Position numbers and translations under genes: made by a program. Positions 21,936 through 30,729 of a stretch of 64,000 nucleotides of DNA are shown here, piece after piece (the first letter of the stretch is position 1; every line of letters begins with the position of its first letter). The notes beneath the pieces are model-generated. The model was not told the origin of the DNA. It ran no database searches and worked only from the letters and a program-made list of their open reading frames with translations. Location: assembly GCA_965246885.1 (NCBI GenBank), contig OZ251992.1:608001-672000 (forward strand). The letters run 5' to 3'. This DNA is from Abditibacterium sp. Lineage in GTDB: Bacteria; Armatimonadota; Abditibacteriia; Abditibacteriales; Abditibacteriaceae.

Positions 21936-22787
21936 ATGCTCCTTGGCGCCCATCTCCCGACCGGTAAGGGGTTCCCCTTCGCCCTTGCCCATGCGCAGCA
22001 GCTCGGTTTGGGGTGCTTGCAACTGTTCTCGAAGTCCCCAAAACAGTGGAGCGCGGCGGCTTTGGACGAGGGGAAGTGCGCCGACTTCCGCGCGCGTTGG
22101 CGCGAGTCCGGGATGGCGCCGCTTGTGGTGCACGACTCGTTCCTCATCAACCTTGCCGCGCCCGACGAAGCGGTGAGGGAAAAGTCGATCGCCGCGATGG
22201 TGGACGAGATACAGCGCGCCGACGCTCTGGGCGCCGATTGGCTGGTGACGCATTGCGGCGCGCACCTCCAGAAAGACAAGACCGAGGGCGAGCGGGTGGG
22301 TTTGGCGACGCTCGCGGCGAGTTTGTGGCTCTGCTTGGAAGCGACGGCAGGGGCGCGGGTGCGGATTGCCCTCGAAAACACCGCCGCGCAGGGCACCTGC
22401 TTGGGTGGCCCGTTCTGGCATCTGGGGCAGGTATTGGCCGACCTCGATTCGCCGCGCTTGGGGGTATGTTTCGATACCTGCCACGCGTGGGCGGCGGGCT
22501 ACGATGTCGCGGCGGATGTGGCGGGAGTGCTGGCGCAGTTCGACGGCGCGATTGGGTTGGGTAAACTTGGCGTCGTTCACTTGAACGACGCCAAGGGCAC
22601 GCTCGGCGGGCACTTGGACAGGCACGAGCACATCGGCGAAGGTGCCATCGGGCGCGCGGGGATGGCCGCTTTGCTGCATCATCCAGCGTTGCGGGCGTTG
22701 CCATTTGTCCTCGAAACGCCGGAAGTCGAGACGCGCATCGCCGATAACGTCGCGGCGGCGCGCGCCCTTGGCCCGCTCAGCGCGTGA
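21936..22787 (+). CDS. nfo: Endonuclease IV
   Basis: LGAH, QLFSKSP, HDSFLINLA, LENTAAQG, CFDTCHAWAAGYD, HLND, DRHEHIGEG, LETP. Confidence 0.94.
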   Translation: MLLGAHLPTGKGFPFALAHAQQLGLGCLQLFSKSPKQWSAAALDEGKCADFRARWRESGMAPLVVHDSFLINLAAPDEAVREKSIAAMVDEIQRADALGADWLVTHCGAHLQKDKTEGERVGLATLAASLWLCLEATAGARVRIALENTAAQGTCLGGPFWHLGQVLADLDSPRLGVCFDTCHAWAAGYDVAADVAGVLAQFDGAIGLGKLGVVHLNDAKGTLGGHLDRHEHIGEGAIGRAGMAALLHHPALRALPFVLETPEVETRIADNVAAARALGPLSA

Positions 22788-23205
22788 ACAGCCACAGCAA
22801 GCCGCCCGCCGCGCCCAGCGCGACCAATGGCACGAGCAGGATGAGCGGGCGATTCTCGCGCTCCCCATACGACGGCGCGACCAGCCAATACCCCAGCGCC
22901 CCGCCCATCACCGCTCCCCACACCGTCCACGCAATCCAAGGCGCAATCGGGAGCGCCGCGCCGCCCGTGATTGTGTCCAAACCCCGCACCAGATAAAACG
23001 CGGGCCAGCGCAGCGCCTGCGACAGCCACACGAGCGCGCTCAGGCCGAAAGTCACCAGCATCAACCCCACGCTGAGCAGCATCTGCGGCGGTAGCTGCGA
23101 CAGCCAACCCATCCCGCGACGGCGGCGCGGCGCTTGGCGTGAACGCTGGTCGGGCGGGGGCGACAAAAACGAAGGCGGGCGGAAAGAAAAGTTCATCGGA
23201 AGCAC
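22777..23205 (-). CDS. Small integral membrane protein (about 3 TM), last gene of the kinase operon
   Basis: Hydrophobic helices (WTVWGAVMGGALG); GTG start 1 nt after the kinase stop, alternative ATG at 23196. Confidence 0.7.
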   Translation of the reverse strand: MLPMNFSFRPPSFLSPPPDQRSRQAPRRRRGMGWLSQLPPQMLLSVGLMLVTFGLSALVWLSQALRWPAFYLVRGLDTITGGAALPIAPWIAWTVWGAVMGGALGYWLVAPSYGERENRPLILLVPLVALGAAGGLLWLFTR

Positions 23206-23206
23206 C

Positions 23207-25957
23207 TCACGACTGCGCGTGTTTCTTGAGCGCGTCGAGCCACACGTAGAAGGCTATCACCGCGCCCACGAGCAGAAAGCCGAGCGCGCCGATGTATCCC
23301 ACTGGCGGCTCGACGTCGGAACCATCGGGCGGGTCGGGGTTGATGGTGACGACGCGCACTCCGTCCGCGCGCACAACGGTGCTGGCGCCCCATCCACCTG
23401 CCGGGGGCGGCACGGCGACGGCAGCTTTGACGGCGGCTTCGGGCGACCACTGCGCGCCGGTGCAAGCGAACGCCAGCAATCGTGTGCCGCCCCCGATGGC
23501 CGCGCCCATCAGCATGCCATTGCGCACGAAGGTCTTACGCTTGGTGTCGGGCGGCGCGATGCGGTACGCCAAACCGAGCGGAGCGCGTAGGCAAGCGGTG
23601 CCTCCCTTGGCAAGGGCGAGACTCGCGCGGCCCGCGCTGCCGGGCGCCATGCCGTCGCGCGAGTTGAGCGACACCATCACTTCGCCGCGCCGCGTGTTGA
23701 TTTGAAGCGGCTCGATGCGAAGACCGGGCGGCGCGTTATCGAGCGCCCACGCGCCAAAGGGTAGCCCCGGCCCGACGGCCTCGAACTCCAAGCGCGCGGT
23801 CGCCTTCTCGCCCCACTCGACGGTCATCGGAGTGGGCGCGGCGGTGAAGCGCAGTTCGACGCGCGGCAGTTCGGGGTCGAGCAGGCGCAAGACGGCTTCA
23901 AAGGTCGCTTCGGGCGCGACGGCATCCTTGCGGCGCAGCGCCTCGATTTGCGCGACAAGCGGAGAAACCTCGCCGTTTTCGTCGCGCATCCGTTGGCGCA
24001 GCCACGCGCCCAGCCAGCCGTCGCGCCAGCGCTCCAACCCCGCGCGATACGCCGACGGCACGCCCGCGTCCCAGTCGCGCGCGCTTCCATAGCACGCCCG
24101 CGCGAGGTCGCGCGGTGAACGGGCGACGACGCCGGGCAGGATGGTGTAGGGCCGCGCCGGGTCGAGGAGCCACAGCACCTCCTCCCACGCGATGCGCGCG
24201 TCTATGCTCGACAAGGTGGCGCCCTCGCGCGAGGGCGGCCACCACGCGCCGCGCAAGATGGCCACGCCCGCCGCCAAGTCGGGCCGGTTGGGGCGCCCCA
24301 AGCGCAGCCACGCTTCGAGGGAGTAGAGCGTCTTGCGGGTGATAATCTCGTGAAGGCTGGTCTGCTTGGCCGCCAGCCACGCTTCCACCTGAGCGGGAAA
24401 CGCCTCGATCTCCTCGACCCACAGCCCCGGCCCAAAGGGAAAGGGCAGGTCGGGGTCGAGGCGCAAAATGGCGTGAAAGAGGGCGAGTCGCGGCGCGGTG
24501 CCCCATTGCTCGCGGTCGCGGCGGATGTCGCGCGCGGCCTTGACGTCGAGTTCGCCGATCCAGTTGAGCAGGACGTCCGAGCGCAGCAGTTCCTCTTCGC
24601 CCAGCGTGGGTTCCTCGCCCAGCGCGCGGGCCATGCCCGCCAAGTCGGTGGGCGCGGACGGGAAGACGTTGTAAGGCCGCGCCGCTCGCTTGACGCCTAA
24701 CTCATACCCGGCGTCGTCGCGGATTTTCTGGCGGTCGTGGTCGGTGGTGGTGCCCCCCAGCCAGCGCGCCACTTCGGGGGCGCCCCAGCGCGTGCGGCGG
24801 TTGCGGATGAGCAGACCTTGCATTAACTCCCGCAAGCGCGGCTCGCAGTCGGGCACGGCAACGCGCCCGCCCGCCATGTAGAAGTCGTAGACGTCGCTCC
24901 AACGCCCGGAATGGAGCGCACTCGTGCCGCTTAAAAGCTCGACCAAGACGACGCCAAAGGAGTAGTAGTCGGACGCGGGCGACACGATGGCGGCGGTCTG
25001 GCCGCTTTCGGGGTCAACGAAGCGCGGAAAGGCTTCGGGCGCCATGTAGAAGTGGGTGCCCGCCGCGCGCACGGTGTCGCGCGAGGTGAGGTGCAGTTCA
25101 ACGAGCGAGGAAATGTCGAAGTCGCCGATGGCAAGCGACAAGCGCCCGTTGTGGCGGCGCAAATACAGGTTCTTCGGTTTAATGTCACGGTGAACGACGC
25201 CGCGCTCGTGCAGGTACTGCAAGCCCGCGCAAAAGGGCGCGACGACGCCGCGCTCCAAAACTTGCGCCGCGAGGCGCGCTTGGCCGTCGCGCGGCAGGGC
25301 ATCGTCTAAGGTGCCGCCCTCGCAGAACTCCTGCACTTCGGCCCAGAAGTCTCCCTCGCGCGCGACGCGGTGCGTGGTGAGCAGGGCAGGGTGGCGCAGG
25401 TCAGGCAAGCGGCGCCAGAGTTCCTCGCGCGGCGGATGCAGAGCGGCGGCGATTTTCACCATCACGCGGCCTTGGGGCGCGTCGCAGTCATAAAGTCCGG
25501 CGCGCGTGGTCTCGTGCGGGCGGATGGTCTCGCGGACGATGCAATCGCCACAAATGAGCGCTCCCGGCGCCAAAACGCCCAACGGCAGCAGCCGACCGGC
25601 GCCCGTTTGGACGCGAGCGCGCGGCGCCATGCGGGTGGCATCGGCGGGCGCGAGCGGCGGGGCGGGCGCGGCCTCGACGGGGCGGCGCGGCACGCGGCGC
25701 GTGACGGCCCACAGCAAAGCGCCACGCGGCGCGCGGCGCGTGGTTTGGGCGCGAAAGTCCAGTGGGGAAGCGGCCATAGCGGATAGTTGCTTTGACAAAG
25801 CGTTAGTTTGAACCGAATCAGCCCTCGGCGTCCCGGCCATGAATGACCGGGCTACCCGTTGGCTTTGCCAACCACTGCCCGCCTTCGCGGACAAAACGCA
25901 GTTCGTGTTGGCCACGAAGGTGGCCAGTGGCGCCAAAGGCGCGTGTAGCCCGGCCAT
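23207..25957 (-). CDS. Large Hanks-type Ser/Thr kinase with helical repeat region and two C-terminal TM segments
   Basis: VMVK, HRDIKPKN, GDFDIS, GTHFYMAPE, SDYYSFG. Start uncertain (25957 abuts the FHA stop; alternative ATG at 25777). Confidence 0.88.
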   Translation of the reverse strand: MAGLHAPLAPLATFVANTNCVLSAKAGSGWQSQRVARSFMAGTPRADSVQTNALSKQLSAMAASPLDFRAQTTRRAPRGALLWAVTRRVPRRPVEAAPAPPLAPADATRMAPRARVQTGAGRLLPLGVLAPGALICGDCIVRETIRPHETTRAGLYDCDAPQGRVMVKIAAALHPPREELWRRLPDLRHPALLTTHRVAREGDFWAEVQEFCEGGTLDDALPRDGQARLAAQVLERGVVAPFCAGLQYLHERGVVHRDIKPKNLYLRRHNGRLSLAIGDFDISSLVELHLTSRDTVRAAGTHFYMAPEAFPRFVDPESGQTAAIVSPASDYYSFGVVLVELLSGTSALHSGRWSDVYDFYMAGGRVAVPDCEPRLRELMQGLLIRNRRTRWGAPEVARWLGGTTTDHDRQKIRDDAGYELGVKRAARPYNVFPSAPTDLAGMARALGEEPTLGEEELLRSDVLLNWIGELDVKAARDIRRDREQWGTAPRLALFHAILRLDPDLPFPFGPGLWVEEIEAFPAQVEAWLAAKQTSLHEIITRKTLYSLEAWLRLGRPNRPDLAAGVAILRGAWWPPSREGATLSSIDARIAWEEVLWLLDPARPYTILPGVVARSPRDLARACYGSARDWDAGVPSAYRAGLERWRDGWLGAWLRQRMRDENGEVSPLVAQIEALRRKDAVAPEATFEAVLRLLDPELPRVELRFTAAPTPMTVEWGEKATARLEFEAVGPGLPFGAWALDNAPPGLRIEPLQINTRRGEVMVSLNSRDGMAPGSAGRASLALAKGGTACLRAPLGLAYRIAPPDTKRKTFVRNGMLMGAAIGGGTRLLAFACTGAQWSPEAAVKAAVAVPPPAGGWGASTVVRADGVRVVTINPDPPDGSDVEPPVGYIGALGFLLVGAVIAFYVWLDALKKHAQS

Positions 25958-26458
25958 TTATGGCCGGGCAGAAATTCCCCCTTCAATCGCCACGCGGAAC
26001 GCGGTGAGCGAAAGCGAAAGCAGCGAGCCGTCATGGAGCGCCACTTCCGAGTCGTCTTCGACTGTTTCGCCGTCTACCGCGATGAAGTTGCCCTGCGCGA
26101 TGTATTGCACGAACCACTGCTCGCCGCGCCGCAAGAACTTGGCGTGGCGGCGCGAGATGAAATCCATGTGCGGCACGTCGCAAAGGAGCACGTCGGCTTC
26201 GAGGCCGCGCCCGATGGTTTGCCCCGCTTCCATGACAAAGGAGCGCGTCGGGTCGTCCACCAATTCCAAGCGGCAACGCGCGGGGATCGGAGCAACGGGC
26301 GCGGCGGGCGGGAGCGGGGCCGCGACTTCCACGCTATCGGCGGCGCGCGCCGCGACGGTTTGCGCGGGAACCGACAAGAGGTCGAAGTCGCAGCGCGTGC
26401 AAAAGGATTCGCTCGGCGCGTTTTCGAGGCCGCACGAGGGGCAGATTTTGACTTGCAC
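25958..26458 (-). CDS. Zinc-ribbon + FHA domain protein
   Basis: CPSCG..N..FCTRC ribbon; TIGR, FISRRHA, GNF FHA motifs. Confidence 0.9.
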   Translation of the reverse strand: MQVKICPSCGLENAPSESFCTRCDFDLLSVPAQTVAARAADSVEVAAPLPPAAPVAPIPARCRLELVDDPTRSFVMEAGQTIGRGLEADVLLCDVPHMDFISRRHAKFLRRGEQWFVQYIAQGNFIAVDGETVEDDSEVALHDGSLLSLSLTAFRVAIEGGISARP

Positions 26459-26459
26459 G

Positions 26460-27152
26460 CTACGCAGTTTCTCCTTCCGGGGCTGTCCGGCGCGCGGGCA
26501 GGTCGGGGCGCGCTTGGATGCCCTGCGCCATCAGCGCCCCGCGATACGCCGCCAAGTCGCCGCGCTTGGGGATCCCAATCAAGCGGAAGCGCGCGGCTCC
26601 CAGCATCTGCAACTGCAACGGGCGGCGCTCCGGCATCGGCGCGGTGGTTTGCTCAAGGTGCCGCGCCGCGCGCGGTGACAAGAGATGCACGCGCTGATTA
26701 TCCGAGCCGCGCCACGCCAACTCGTTGCCCGCGCCCTGCTCGAAGCGGCCATCTATCAGCAAGTCCAACTCGCCCAAATACTCCGCCACTTCCGGCCCGC
26801 GCCCTTGCAACTCCTCCAGCGAAAAGCCGGAATACGACAGCACTTCCAACCCTTCCAAGCCCGCCATCGCCCGCAACGCCCGAATCAGCAGCGTAAGCGG
26901 GCGCGCTTGCAGCGTCGGCTCGCCGCCCGAAATCGAAAGCCCATCCAACCCGCGCAAGGCGGGCGCCAACTGCTGCGCTATCTCGCCCACTGCGCGGTGC
27001 GTCGCGGACGCTCCCGGTTCCCACAGTTCGGGCGTCATGCAACCCGGACACGCGAGCGGGCAGCCGCGCACCCACAAGATCAAGCGGCGCCCCGGCCCCA
27101 GCCCTTCGACGGGCGCGGCGAAGTCTTCCATGTCCAGCAAGGCGTCTTCCAT
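26460..27152 (-). CDS. NrdG-like radical SAM (activating-enzyme family) protein
   Basis: GCPLACPGC (CX3CX2C), SGGEP, YSGF, LIDGRF, WRGSDNQR; ATG overlaps the AAA stop (TAATG). Confidence 0.9.
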   Translation of the reverse strand: MEDALLDMEDFAAPVEGLGPGRRLILWVRGCPLACPGCMTPELWEPGASATHRAVGEIAQQLAPALRGLDGLSISGGEPTLQARPLTLLIRALRAMAGLEGLEVLSYSGFSLEELQGRGPEVAEYLGELDLLIDGRFEQGAGNELAWRGSDNQRVHLLSPRAARHLEQTTAPMPERRPLQLQMLGAARFRLIGIPKRGDLAAYRGALMAQGIQARPDLPARRTAPEGETA

Positions 27153-29200
27153 TACTTCGCCTCCCAGTGCAGCGTGTAGCCCCAACCCGCGACGGGCGGG
27201 ACTTCGATGTTCGTGACGCGCAGCGTGGTTATCTTGTGCGGCGCGTCGAGAACTTGGAACAGGACGCGTGCGAGCGGGTTGAGGACGGCGGCTTCGGCGA
27301 GGTTGCCCATGCCGCGCCCGCCCGACGCGACGTCACCCCCGCCCAAGCGCATGAGGGTGTCCACCACGCCCTGCTCGAAGACGACTTCGATGCCGTGTGT
27401 TTCGCGCACTTGGGAGGCAATGGAGGGCAGCACTTTGTTTTCGAGGATGCGGCGTAGCGTCGGCTCGCGCACGAAGTCGAAGACAACGACGTTTTGCCCG
27501 ATGCGGTTAAGCAGTTCGGGGCGCCCCAAGATGTGCTTGAAATACGAGCCGACGCCGTCCACGATCTTGGCGCGCACATCGGCATACTCGGTGTCAATGG
27601 CGGGGTCTACGTTGAGTTCGGGCCGCCCCGTGACGGGGTCTACCATAGGCCGCGTGGTTTGCGGGTCGAGGCGGTAGATGCCCGCGTTGGACGTAAAGAC
27701 GATGACGGACTCGGAGAAGTAGACGGTTTGTCCGCGCCCGTCGGTCATGCGGCCATCTTCGAGTATCTGGAGGAACTTATCGAGTATCGAAGGGTGCGCC
27801 TTCTCGATTTCGTCGAAAAGTAAGACGGAGAACGGGTTGGCGCGGACGCGGTTGGTGAGTTGTCCGCCTTCCTCGTAGCCGACGTAGCCGGGCGGGGCGC
27901 CCAATAGCTTTTGGTCGGAGTGCGTGTCGCCGTATTCGCTCATGTCGAAGCGGATGCAGGCGTCTTGGGTTCCAAAGACCAGTTCCGCCATCGCTTTGGC
28001 GAGTTCGGTCTTGCCCACGCCGGTTGGCCCGGCGAAGAACAGGACGCCGCGCGGCTTGGTGCGACTGGAATGTTGCGCGCCCGACAAGCCCAGTCGCGCG
28101 CGGCGCAAAACGTCGGCGACCGCCGCGACCGCCGCTTCTTGGCCGATGACGCGGCGGCTCAAGGCGGCTTCGGCGCCCGCCAACTTCGCGGCGGGCAAGG
28201 TGTCCCATTCGCTTTCGCGCTCGCCGTATTTGAAGCGGTCTACTAATTCCTTGGGCTTGATGGGCGCGTCCTCGCCTTGCGCGTGCGCGGCGCGCGCGAT
28301 TTTGCGGATGCCATACAGGTCGCGCACGCTCATGCCGTCGGTCAGTTCGACCAACTCATCGAGGGGTGTCTTGTGGCTGGCCTCGGAGCGTTGGCGGGCG
28401 ACGGCGGGCAGGAAGCGGGTGAAGAAGTGGCGCCGCTCGACCGAGCGTGGCAATTCCACCTCGACGCCCGCGCCAAAGGGGTTGTTGAGATACACCCACG
28501 CCGGCAGGTCGGTCAGCTTGTCGCAACCCACGACCAGCAGGTTCTGCACTTCGCGCGGCGCCTCGTCGCCCGCGCCGCGCGCCGACAGGACACGGTTTTC
28601 CGGCGCCGAGCGCACCAGCCGCAAGAACGAACTCCGCTCGGCGAGCGTCAGGTGCGTCGGCGACGCGAGCAGTTGCGAGGCGTATTCCAGAAAGAACACC
28701 GTTGGCACCCGCGCGTTGAGCAGACAAATCCGCATTTGCTGGAGCGCCAAGTCGAGAGGGTCTTCGGGGTTGCTCGGCCCCGGATGGCGCCCCGCGCCAA
28801 GCGAAAAGCGCGCCGTCCGTTCGCCCGCTTCGACGAACTGCTCGAACAGTTGCGCCATCGTGAGCGCGGCGCCGGGAACTTTAACCGGCAAGACCGGCGC
28901 TTTGACGTCAGTGAGCGGAAGCGGCACGCCCGCGAGTGGCGCGTCGGCGAACACCATCCCGTCAATGGAGTTGAACGCGCCAATCAGCCCATAGCCGCGC
29001 GTTCGGAAAAACTCGAACAGCGCCTCGCGCAGCGACCCCAACTTCCAAGCGCCGTCCCCTTCGGGCACGCCGGGCGAGGGCGCGAGCGGATACAGCACGG
29101 TGTCCTTGATTTGCCCGTAGAGATAGATTTGCGACTTGAACGCGCTCAGGCGGTCGAGGTCGCGCATCCAACGCGGCAGCAGATTCGGGGTTTGCGACAT
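27152..29200 (-). CDS. ClpB/ClpA-D2-type AAA+ ATPase with divergent N-terminal module
   Basis: AGPTGVGKTE, RFDMSEY, GAPPGYVGYEEGG, LFDEIEKAHP, GRMTDGRG, RPELLNRI. N-terminal half has no intact Walker A (YLYGQIKD). Confidence 0.9.
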   Translation of the reverse strand: MSQTPNLLPRWMRDLDRLSAFKSQIYLYGQIKDTVLYPLAPSPGVPEGDGAWKLGSLREALFEFFRTRGYGLIGAFNSIDGMVFADAPLAGVPLPLTDVKAPVLPVKVPGAALTMAQLFEQFVEAGERTARFSLGAGRHPGPSNPEDPLDLALQQMRICLLNARVPTVFFLEYASQLLASPTHLTLAERSSFLRLVRSAPENRVLSARGAGDEAPREVQNLLVVGCDKLTDLPAWVYLNNPFGAGVEVELPRSVERRHFFTRFLPAVARQRSEASHKTPLDELVELTDGMSVRDLYGIRKIARAAHAQGEDAPIKPKELVDRFKYGERESEWDTLPAAKLAGAEAALSRRVIGQEAAVAAVADVLRRARLGLSGAQHSSRTKPRGVLFFAGPTGVGKTELAKAMAELVFGTQDACIRFDMSEYGDTHSDQKLLGAPPGYVGYEEGGQLTNRVRANPFSVLLFDEIEKAHPSILDKFLQILEDGRMTDGRGQTVYFSESVIVFTSNAGIYRLDPQTTRPMVDPVTGRPELNVDPAIDTEYADVRAKIVDGVGSYFKHILGRPELLNRIGQNVVVFDFVREPTLRRILENKVLPSIASQVRETHGIEVVFEQGVVDTLMRLGGGDVASGGRGMGNLAEAAVLNPLARVLFQVLDAPHKITTLRVTNIEVPPVAGWGYTLHWEAK

Positions 29201-29242
29201 GGGTAGTGGGTTGTTGGGGTTGGGAAGCGTTGAAAAAGAGTT

Positions 29243-30574
29243 TTATTCCCCCATTCGCCGCACTTGGGGCGCCCCGCTTTCGCGGCGGGCGGCTTCGGCA
29301 ATGGCTTGGGAGGCCCCGTCGCTTTGCAGTTGCACGACTTGCAACTCTTCCTTGCCCGCTTTGAAGTTGCGGCGCTTCTTTTCGCGCACAACCAAGTTGC
29401 GGCGGCGCAGGCCGTCGAAGACGGCGTCCATCAGGTCGCACACCCGCTCTTGTTCGCGGCTCGATACCTCGCGCGTGCCGTCCGACAGGGCGACCATCTT
29501 GCCTTCGAGCGCGCCTTTGCCGTCTATGTGCAGTTGCACGCCCGTTCCGGCGTCGAGAACCGCGACAAGTTCGGGCGAGTTGGTGGCGCTCGACACGCGG
29601 TAGCCAAGCCCCGCCAGCACTTGCTGCACTTGGTCTTCGAGAAAGGTCTGCATGGCGCGCTCGTCGAGGGCTTCCTGCGTGCGGGCGAACAGGGCGTCGC
29701 TTTGCTCGGCCAGCCCTTCGAGGGTTTGCAGTTCGACGGGCGTCGCGGCGACAAGGGCGGACAGGCGTTTGAGCATCTCGTTCGCTTCGCGGCGCGGCTC
29801 CTCAAGGACGGTTTGGTTGAGGACGGCGCGCGCGTTGGCCGAAATGTGACCGGCCAACTCGCGGGCGCGGGCGGCGTTTTGCAAGCGCGCGGCGTCTTCT
29901 CCGGTGGCGCGTTTGATTTCACTCCGCGCCCGCTCCCCAAGCAGTTGCAGCCCTTGCACCGCCATCGCGGGCTGAGTCGCCGCCAGTTCGCGCACTTGCG
30001 CGGCGCGCTCCAAAATGGCTTTGAGTGCTGCGCCCCGTCCGCCGCGCGCCAAGGGAGACGCGCGCACATCCGCTTCAAGCGCGGCGACTTCCTCGCGCAC
30101 GAGTGCCGCGACATCGGCGCTCTTGGCGGAGGTCTCTTTCGCGCGTGCCGCCACCCATGCCGCGACCGCCGCCTGCAATTGCTCGAAGGCCGCCATCTGT
30201 CCGCCCGCGCCGGACGCCGCTACCTCGCGGATGACCTCCGCGCATCGGGCGCGCAGAGCCGCCACTTGGGGAGAAGTCGGCGCGTTCGGGTCGCCGCCCG
30301 CCGCGCCCAAGCGCCCGCGCATCCGGCTCAGGGCGCCCAGCAGAAACGCTGTGTCGGGGTCGGCGGCGCTTTGGGGAGATAGCTCCAGCGCCATGCTTTG
30401 CGCCAAGCGCCGCGACTCGGCGAACTGCGCGCGCTGTTGCGAGTGTTCTTGTGCTTCGCGCTCGTCGCGCGCGGCCCACTCCGCTTTGGCCGCGCAATAA
30501 TCGCCGCGCATCTGGCGCGCGGCCAAATACACCGCCGCTCCCGCCACCACCACGCCCCCCGTCGCCGCCATCAT
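29243..30574 (-). CDS. Ala-rich coiled-coil protein, first gene of the AAA/radical SAM/kinase operon; true start possibly 30645 via frameshift
   Basis: Hydrophobic Gly/Ala N-terminus, long helical body, alpha/beta C-terminus (VLAGLGYRV...LHIDGKG...RVC); GGAGG RBS precedes an out-of-frame ATG at 30645. Confidence 0.8.
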   Translation of the reverse strand: MMAATGGVVVAGAAVYLAARQMRGDYCAAKAEWAARDEREAQEHSQQRAQFAESRRLAQSMALELSPQSAADPDTAFLLGALSRMRGRLGAAGGDPNAPTSPQVAALRARCAEVIREVAASGAGGQMAAFEQLQAAVAAWVAARAKETSAKSADVAALVREEVAALEADVRASPLARGGRGAALKAILERAAQVRELAATQPAMAVQGLQLLGERARSEIKRATGEDAARLQNAARARELAGHISANARAVLNQTVLEEPRREANEMLKRLSALVAATPVELQTLEGLAEQSDALFARTQEALDERAMQTFLEDQVQQVLAGLGYRVSSATNSPELVAVLDAGTGVQLHIDGKGALEGKMVALSDGTREVSSREQERVCDLMDAVFDGLRRRNLVVREKKRRNFKAGKEELQVVQLQSDGASQAIAEAARRESGAPQVRRMGE

Positions 30575-30729
30575 GGTGGCAAAGGCGCCCGCGCCCCCGC
30601 CCGCTCCGCGTTCATTATCACGACCGCATCGGTTGCTCCGCTCATAGTTCCTCCCGGCGAAAATGCCGCTTCAAGTAAAGCACGTTGCGCGCCGCCGCTA
30701 AAGGGAGCGATAAGCAAAAAGCCTTGCAA

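Follow-up and report, generated by a model that had tools for sequence, protein, structure and literature searches.

A six-gene cluster of Abditibacterium as a candidate Armatimonadota variant of a widespread, unnamed gene set and probable conflict system

We analyzed a 64-kb stretch of the Abditibacterium sp. genome (contig OZ251992.1, positions 608,001 to 672,000; hereafter the window) that carries a compact cluster of six genes, A to F. They encode a helical protein, an AAA+ ATPase, a radical S-adenosylmethionine (SAM) enzyme, an FHA protein, a Ser/Thr kinase, and a small membrane protein. The genome itself (G000) measures 3.56 Mb in 2 contigs and is 92.7% complete. An earlier note had described the six genes as one coupled operon, and the open reading frame (ORF) coordinates bear out that they lie closely packed on the same, minus, strand. 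The domain assignments made at that time hold as well: Pfam confirms the AAA+, radical SAM, zinc-ribbon/FHA, and kinase domains, and hydrophobic segments in E and F account for the transmembrane (TM) parts. Genes A and F have no match to any Pfam family. The genes, listed in the order of transcription, are as follows.

29243..30645, minus strand: gene A, here also called X, a coiled-coil/helical-bundle protein; probable true start ATG 30645, uninterrupted ORF 29243-30574 (443 aa)
27152..29200, minus strand: gene B, a two-tier AAA+ protein (AAA_2, 2.8e-45, Pfam)
26460..27152, minus strand: gene C, an NrdG/PflA-type radical SAM protein (Fer4_12/Radical_SAM, 3e-27, Pfam)
25958..26458, minus strand: gene D, an N-terminal zinc ribbon with a C-terminal FHA domain (FHA 4.7e-08, Zn_Ribbon_1 3.6e-04, Pfam)
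23207..25957, minus strand: gene E, a Hanks-type Ser/Thr kinase (Pkinase, 1.1e-25, Pfam); real start possibly downstream of 25957
22777..23205, minus strand: gene F, an ORF for a small membrane protein with hydrophobic segments at 40-58 and 119-137

Genes A and B are separated by 42 nt, B and C overlap by 1 nt (TAATG), and the remaining spacings are 1 nt (C-D), 0 nt (D-E), and 1 nt (E-F). Measured on ORF ends, every junction is as the earlier note had claimed; the D-E and E-F values presuppose the earliest possible start codon, and the starts of the kinase and TM genes are uncertain. Because the similarity of relatives begins only at residue ~94 of E and residue ~46 of F (tblastn), the true D-E and E-F gaps may be longer than 0 and 1 nt. 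In a consensus scan of the window, no site resembled a promoter (0), and 5 resembled terminators, which is no excess over the 9.8 expected from shuffled sequence.

The recurrence of these genes was followed with a pattern scan of one genome per species (185,579 species), which returned 566 relatives of the radical SAM protein. The best 80 loci were kept, and 56 of them are fully flanked, with at least 8 kb on either side of the radical SAM gene. All six genes occur in L003, an Abditibacterium locus (A to F 51, 72, 71, 57, 59, and 52% identical, tblastn). Five genes each are present in L005 and L006 (Fimbriimonadales, unclassified metagenome-assembled genome) and in L004, whose contig begins at B (B to E by tblastn, F by clustering). 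Across the flanked loci, the AAA+ gene lies beside the radical SAM gene in 53 of 56, full length and including its N-terminal tier. A kinase-fold protein accompanies them in 43 and X in at least 42, with AAA+, kinase, and X all present in 38. The FHA gene, by comparison, is found in 3 of the 56 flanked loci (6 of all 80) and the TM gene in 2 loci. Outside Armatimonadota these two are mostly absent, and B and C stay paired.

The set had been expected to be conserved together, and this is so in part: six genes travel as a group in L003 and five in L004 to L006, but the unit of conservation is the triad of X, AAA+, and radical SAM rather than all six genes. The linkage of coiled-coil protein, AAA+, and radical SAM that the earlier note had proposed thus stands as a conserved core across phyla. 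The complete six-gene set is limited to Armatimonadota; its X/AAA+/radical SAM core is widespread. In the window, the three triad genes are adjacent and co-oriented. The coordinate overlap between AAA+ and radical SAM recurs elsewhere, for example in L011, L041, and L022, as viewed on gene maps only.

What varies is the output that accompanies the core. A common operon, found in Proteobacteria, Cyanobacteria, Verrucomicrobiota, Chlamydiota, and Acidobacteriota, encodes an AAA+ protein of ~620 aa, a radical SAM protein of ~215 aa, a giant protein of 2,050-2,150 aa, and an X of ~450 aa. The giant combines Pkinase, DUF4011, AAA_11/AAA_12, and REase_MTES_1575 domains. It matches PDC-S37 (2.7e-141), Hhe (2.7e-63), and MkoA in PADLOC and ProA in NCBIfam (2e-136), yet its scores lie below the NCBIfam cut-offs for ProA (456.6 bits vs 1500) and Hhe (304 vs 2000).

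In most giants the kinase fold has lost its catalytic residues. Both the β3 lysine and the DFG aspartate are gone in 19 of 23 (e.g., L011:10624-16887), and 2 more are gapped or degenerate; the two verrucomicrobial giants in L032 and L051 retain all four catalytic residues. Across the 52 kinase rows compared, these residues are kept in 21, namely the window protein, 18 other shorter proteins, and the 2 giants just mentioned. The earlier note had pictured a phospho-switched machine. Because the kinase fold is degenerate or gapped in 21 of 23 giants, a phospho-switch does not hold as the general mechanism of the family.

Further loci join the core to other partners: FGE-sulfatase kinases (L031, L070), CHAT proteases (L059, L073), vWA plus PP2C proteins (L016, L031), GAP1/Double-GTPase proteins (L013, L015), a restriction helicase-endonuclease (L056), and FHA proteins (L049, L067). 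This swapping of output modules, together with the matches of the giants to anti-phage proteins, gives the family the flavor of a conflict system. Even the motor of the triad may be replaceable. In L019:10644-14679, L024:3082-8737, and L033:10470-15361, the same radical SAM family occurs with no ClpB-like AAA+ and instead accompanies an X-like protein of ~480-520 aa and a different, double classical AAA+; in L033 this motor is fused to a trypsin-like peptidase.

By its CX3CX2C and GGE motifs and its similarity to pyruvate formate-lyase activating enzyme (PFL-AE), C is a member of the glycyl-radical-enzyme activase superfamily. PFL-AE is the closest solved sequence (2.1e-15), followed by QueE, and close homologues are labelled Abditibacterium and Armatimonadota. 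Residues C31, C35, and C38 and the GGEP motif were invariant in 25 of 25 and then in 56 of 56 sequences, and a WRGSDNQ motif is also kept. Members of the family carry an added, conserved C-terminal domain of ~60 aa.

One explanation for these features would be that C is an ordinary NrdG or PflA that serves a glycyl-radical enzyme encoded elsewhere and stands in the cluster only incidentally. The best named model for C is NrdG (TIGR02491, 4.7e-26), and database entries call its relatives 'anaerobic ribonucleoside-triphosphate reductase activating protein'. However, the score of 91.6 bits is below the model's cut-off of 126.1, and C is also below the cut-off of the PflA model (NCBIfam). Searches of its own, nearly complete genome found no NrdD (PF13597) and no glycyl-radical domain (PF01228). 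NrdD is likewise missing in 4 of 5 other carrier genomes and present in 1. In the enterobacterial and Orbaceae carriers, 5 of 5 encode a separate true NrdG, which scores 204-212 bits vs 83-92 for the system copy. An incidental neighborhood also fits poorly with an AAA+ linkage fixed in nearly all flanked loci.

Phylogeny points the same way. A quick maximum-likelihood tree was built from 56 system radical SAM proteins, 4 NrdG, and 4 PflA-like sequences, the mis-picked rows L085 and L095 having been removed beforehand. NrdG and PflA each form a clade (SH-like approximate likelihood ratio test, 100). Although the free tree needs 2 changes for the system proteins, constraining them to one clade gave a log-likelihood better by 6.2, and a single clade apart from NrdG and PflA is not rejected (approximately unbiased test, p = 0.715). 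The tree is thus compatible with a system clade distinct from true NrdG. The sub-cut-off score, the lack of NrdD, the separate NrdG of carriers, and the tree together rule out C as a true NrdG, and we consider the likelihood of an ordinary activase to be almost negligible. The earlier note had called C an orphan serving no NrdD or PFL, and on this point the score, the genome searches, the carrier genomes, and the tree all agree.

Two side observations concern other radical SAM-like sequences. Outside the window, an open frame of 658 aa contains another Fer4_12 match, a weak one of 22.8 bits (G000:C1:1409393-1409686). In L041:1673-3241, upstream of the system in Xenorhabdus and on the opposite strand, a deoxynucleoside-kinase-like gene is accompanied by a second small radical SAM gene; the two may form an unrelated nucleotide-modifying pair.

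The AAA+ protein has two unequal tiers. Residues ~383-650 of B form a ClpB-D2-type module in which the Walker A and B motifs, the pore loop G-[YF]-[VI]-G, sensor-1, the arginine finger, and sensor-2 are mostly identical in 45 of 45 members, the remainder being similar residues. ClpB D2 rings translocate polypeptides. Because the motifs are conserved and ClpB D2 behaves in this way, we read the C-terminal half of B as a probable active polypeptide translocase. Residues 1-345 form a degenerate tier that resembles classical AAA domains. Its AlphaFold2 (AF2) model is confident (mean predicted local distance difference test, pLDDT, 87.9), and Foldseek aligns it with proteasome Rpt, p97-D1, and PAN (E ~3e-6, TM-score 0.3-0.5). 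The P-loop site of this tier reads G-x-x-x-D, not GxxGxGKT, and because of this degeneration we regard the upper tier as dead. B cannot be assigned to ClpB or ClpV (TssH): it lies below both cut-offs (ClpB 246.5 bits vs 1232; TssH 208.6 vs 885, 1.7e-61), matches in the D2 half only, and has an N-terminal tier without a P-loop. Two further Clp paralogues are encoded elsewhere in the same genome. Within PADLOC, the ATPase core of B matches PDC-M37B (2.4e-29) and DolB (2.6e-17).

A Clp-family ATPase beside a membrane kinase and an FHA protein brings to mind the Thr-phosphorylation checkpoint of type VI secretion systems (T6SS), consisting of PpkA, Fha, PppA, and ClpV, here stripped of its secretion genes. 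The parts are similar, the more so in sister loci that have a PP2C gene, and D and B do match TagH (1.1e-05) and TssH, albeit far below the cut-offs. Against this, the upper tier of B comes from a different AAA clade, and B travels with radical SAM and X rather than with secretion genes. No TssC/VipB (PF05943) was found in the genome, and on this ground we rejected a link to T6SS; the likelihood that the cluster is such a checkpoint seems to us very remote.

The third member of the triad is X. A search with jackhmmer from the C-terminus of A recovered the X family in 48 of 80 loci, and a search from a canonical X added four. In hhalign, a stretch of 154 C-terminal columns aligns the Armatimonadota A proteins with the X family (probability 83%, E 8.5e-6). 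On the strength of this profile similarity, A of the window is a member of the X family. The 460-aa neighbors in actinobacterial loci are X proteins too (hhalign 95%, E 2.6e-8), and planctomycete and other long forms have the end motifs in common with X. Among 93 X sequences, G332, Y333, and C396 are invariant and M1, S2, and G3 nearly so. The window protein has the same signature, with MSGAT at its start and LGYRV ... VC toward its end. A profile search of 1.84 billion representatives collected 2,503 cluster representatives of the family at E<=1e-3; under the stricter limit of E<=1e-30 there are 693. X matches no Pfam, NCBIfam, or PADLOC model, and its relatives in the ESM Atlas are all unnamed.

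The start of A deserves a comment. The ATG at 30645, proposed in the earlier note, agrees with the N-termini of relatives (MSGAT/MSGPK), but in the window the frame that opens there halts after 24 codons, and the long ORF opens in a different frame at 30574. Contigs from 2 public runs contain an extra single G behind 30607, which makes A continuous at about 467 aa. Both runs belong to one study, which is possibly the source sample of the assembly. Because the extra G joins the two frames in the contigs of both runs, the break near 30607 is most likely a one-base assembly error in a homopolymer (G/C run) rather than the mark of a pseudogene.

For a canonical X, AF2 yields a high-confidence model (pLDDT 92.2; predicted TM-score, pTM, 0.86) that depicts a small α/β head atop a long helical bundle. 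Residues 4-9 are modelled as a strand that joins the C-terminal strands to build this head, which would explain why the N-terminus is conserved. The C-terminal domain that contributes to the head bears the invariant Gly-Tyr pair and the Cys; the pair directly follows a long helix (residues 294-330). Foldseek found nothing in the Protein Data Bank (PDB) at E<=1e-3, and the PDB sequence set held no convincing solved relative. VIA-align returned generic helical bundles only (best Z 10.7). For the head alone it gave KA1-like matches, 5wi2_B (Z 7.7, root-mean-square deviation 3.0, 89 aligned) and 3t4n_A (Z 7.3), which are inside the tool's noise range. The fold of X is unlike the known glycyl-radical domains, and an invariant Gly-aromatic pair and a Cys are nevertheless present.

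In the window, the output of the triad would be a live, membrane-anchored kinase with an FHA reader. E keeps the β3 Lys, the HRD Asp, the catalytic-loop Asn, and an Asp at the DFG position (DFD), as in active Hanks kinases. A single hydrophobic segment (884-902) lies near its C-terminus. Beyond the kinase domain come a system-specific region and then ~450 aa without assignment. The similarity between E and the giants reaches E residues ~506-555 (tblastn), and because it thus runs ~100-150 residues past the kinase domain, the kinase module is specific to this system. Homologues of D follow the radical SAM gene in L003-L007 and L009, and homologues of F are found in L003 and L004 only. On the sequence comparisons available, three parts are accessories of particular lineages: the FHA protein, the membrane anchor, and the small TM protein. 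A PP2C gene sits between the FHA and kinase genes in the sister loci L003, L005, and L006, and none is present within the 64 kb of the window.

Two minor features of the kinase genes are listed separately.

25719..25739, minus strand: G+C-rich hairpin followed by a T-rich tail (consensus scan), inside the weakly supported 5' extension of the kinase ORF
L003:10967-11200, L004:3447-3650, L005:11910-12060, L006:11914-12080, and window E residues ~100-110: Thr motifs of the kinase tails

The hairpin is to be taken as a lead only. It is part of a segment (25634-25957, minus strand) that spans the first ~100 kinase codons, has no counterpart in relatives, and corresponds to the site of the PP2C gene in sister loci. 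This 5' extension may be non-coding, the scar of a lost phosphatase gene. As for the second feature, the motif acidic-x-Thr-x-Arg/Lys-(V/I/L/A) occurs between one and three times in the N-terminal tail of each Armatimonadota kinase, with three copies in L003. Such Thr-x-x-(V/I/L/A) motifs are plausible candidates for auto-phosphorylation sites at which the FHA domain could dock.

A complex was also predicted for two members of the triad. The model of X with radical SAM scored 0.58 (runs 0.62, 0.53, and 0.58), compared to 0.00 for the best of 3 controls, with a contact agreement of at least 74% and a partner pLDDT of at least 85. Of 157 solved pairs, 116 reach the mark used for this score, as do 2 of 215 mismatched pairs; those that reach it at or below 0.60, where our value falls, comprise only 18 of the 157 solved pairs but both mismatches. 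We take the model as weak support for an X-radical SAM complex.

A direct contact of this kind could also suit the maturation of a ribosomally synthesized and post-translationally modified peptide (RiPP). The radical SAM enzyme would then modify X, for instance at its invariant Cys, the AAA+ would act as unfoldase or exporter, and the kinase would be LanL-like. X and radical SAM co-occur almost always, and the kinase has a weak match to the LanL model (2.2e-12, far below cut-off). Yet X is a confidently modelled 450-aa fold and not a leader-core peptide, and the loci share no conserved SPASM domain, protease, or transporter. Helicase-nuclease fusions, moreover, are ill-suited to biosynthesis. 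We find a RiPP-like role decidedly improbable.

The spread of the cluster is patchy. Of 401 genomes sampled from the phylum, 50 gave a match at E<=1e-15, as did 7 of 12 from the genus. Insertion sites differ, and none of 8 proteins from the window's flanks occurs in any of the 80 loci. Plasmids encode X as well: there are 11 such records, including 5 predicted to be conjugative, on which the Prokaryotic Genome Annotation Pipeline gives the four genes generic names only.

Considering the conserved triad, its exchangeable outputs, and this distribution, we lean, with moderate confidence, toward the view that the cluster represents, in Armatimonadota, a widespread conflict system that has no name so far and whose most likely targets are phages or plasmids. 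Several observations weigh against that view. X was absent from 50,697 phage records, and a DNA-level search of 5,426 E. coli genomes returned similarity to TssH only. The 124 ORFs of at least 180 aa that flank 20 canonical loci are mostly housekeeping or metabolic genes. Neighbors of defense or mobile type appeared in 5 of these 20 loci (ParE; ArdC/AAA_34; UvrD_C plus sacsin; AAA_27, AAA_13/21, and SNase; WYL), and the association of the triad with defense islands is weak. The flanks of the window are housekeeping as well (Fe-S assembly, endonuclease IV, DUF2237, PurB). The invariant Gly-Tyr of X may be structural, not catalytic, to judge from the model, and the predicted X-radical SAM complex supports the view only weakly. 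Finally, a paper on the Pseudomonas aeruginosa cDHS1 locus (PMC10250203) describes similar flank genes that may be the same module, which there serves as a landmark without being regarded as a system; if so, the module behaves in that species like a core gene. These candidate genes may be PA2725-PA2728. No functional study of them was found in a literature search.

Several of these points would equally suit a housekeeping or stress module, in which the motor and the radical SAM enzyme repair or remodel X or a client protein when redox conditions, the envelope, or DNA damage put the cell under stress. Ser/Thr phosphorylation at the membrane would control such a module in the window. The mostly housekeeping flanks, the core-gene-like P. 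aeruginosa genes (if they are the same), and the absence from phage records all fit, and sets of FHA, PP2C, and Hanks kinase often regulate physiology. A module of this sort, however, would hardly be so patchy even within a genus, vary in its insertion sites, and reside on plasmids, nor would it exchange outputs of the kinds usual in conflict systems, such as nucleases, proteases, and GTPases. The genome also has separate Clp paralogues. We judge a housekeeping role rather unlikely.

How might a conflict system of this composition work? The known behavior of ClpB-D2 rings and of PFL-AE and NrdG, both of which act on a protein substrate, suggests the following. The triad would comprise X, an AAA+ whose upper tier is dead and whose second, ClpB-D2-type tier is active, and an activase-type radical SAM enzyme that appears translationally coupled to the AAA+. 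The motor would engage either X itself or some foreign protein bound to X, and present a segment of it to the radical SAM enzyme, which may act on that protein rather than on a small molecule, as PFL-AE and NrdG do. The modification might then license the kinase-fold protein to which the triad is wired as output. In most phyla, this output would be a degenerate kinase joined to DUF4011, an SF1 helicase, and a restriction endonuclease, and would result in cleavage of DNA or RNA. In the window, it would be an intact kinase with a C-terminal membrane anchor, a zinc-ribbon-FHA reader, and a small membrane protein; the signal would be phospho-threonine, read by the FHA domain and delivered at the membrane. 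Sister loci would add a PP2C eraser.

A bolder version of this scheme, which we consider improbable, makes X itself the carrier of a protein radical. The motor would open the head of X, and the radical SAM enzyme would abstract a hydrogen from the invariant Gly or Cys. In hosts that are mostly aerobic, O2 would then cleave the chain at the glycyl radical. Such a break could not be undone; triggered by infection, it would act as a switch and release the kinase-fold output, whether nuclease, protease, or membrane signal. If true, glycyl-radical chemistry would be seen here for the first time in immunity and for the first time outside anaerobic metabolism.

Should the triad serve immunity by any route, the combination of an activase-type radical SAM enzyme with a polypeptide unfoldase would be a chemistry new to described defense systems. 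It would also provide a function for the large orphan X family and for the 'anaerobic ribonucleotide reductase (RNR) activase' annotations in aerobes without NrdD. The family further amounts to a natural experiment, in which one core is combined either with a helicase-nuclease and a dead kinase or with a live kinase/FHA/(PP2C) membrane circuit, making the communication between core and output directly comparable between phyla. On the practical side, the misleading 'RNR activase' names in databases can be corrected, which matters for metabolic reconstructions.

The earlier note knew of no characterized system with this composition, and we found none in PADLOC, NCBIfam, the PDB, or the literature searched. 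The ensemble has no named counterpart in PADLOC 2.0, NCBIfam 20, or the 2026 PDB sequence set. On the window, PADLOC gave generic ATPase and kinase matches only, with none for X, radical SAM, FHA, or TM protein, and NCBIfam has no X family and placed all other matches below cut-off. The gene set is undescribed in the literature searched, although the supplement of the Ophion preprint, with its >500 candidates, and PADLOC/DefenseFinder candidates from after 2023 could hold it.

Each part of the cluster does have relatives in known systems. The T6SS checkpoint shares a membrane Hanks kinase, an FHA protein, a Clp-family ATPase and, in sister loci, PP2C; it differs in that the Abditibacterium genome lacks a sheath gene, B does not qualify as TssH, and radical SAM and X are present. 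Hhe, ProA, and PDC-S37 are annotated in the libraries as single-gene DUF4011 helicase-nuclease anti-phage proteins, and the giants carry the same domains. E of the window shares only the Pkinase domain with them, having no DUF4011, helicase, or nuclease. MkoA of Mokosh, a kinase plus helicase, resembles the giant kinase-fold protein, but no PLD partner was seen in our loci. All four of these systems are without radical SAM, Clp-type AAA+, or X, and the matches to them are partial or below cut-off. Dodola (DolB) and PDC-M37 also place a ClpB-like AAA+ in a defense context; their similarity to B covers only ~120-180 residues of the ATPase core.

The radical SAM enzyme invites two further comparisons. 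Prokaryotic viperins and OpnA of Ophion, a system of radical SAM, PHP, and PRTase as outlined in the preprint (bioRxiv 10.1101/2025.09.30.679545), likewise place a radical SAM enzyme in a proposed or proven defense operon. Those enzymes are viperin-like nucleotide modifiers, whereas C appears to belong to the protein-activase branch and has different partners. With PFL-AE/PflA and NrdG, on the other hand, C has in common the N-terminal G-x-G-x-R loop, CX3CX2C, and GGEP. It differs from them in its C-terminal domain, in a genome that encodes no glycyl-radical enzyme, and in the company its family keeps: of the 56 flanked loci, 53 have the AAA+ motor and no fewer than 42 have X.

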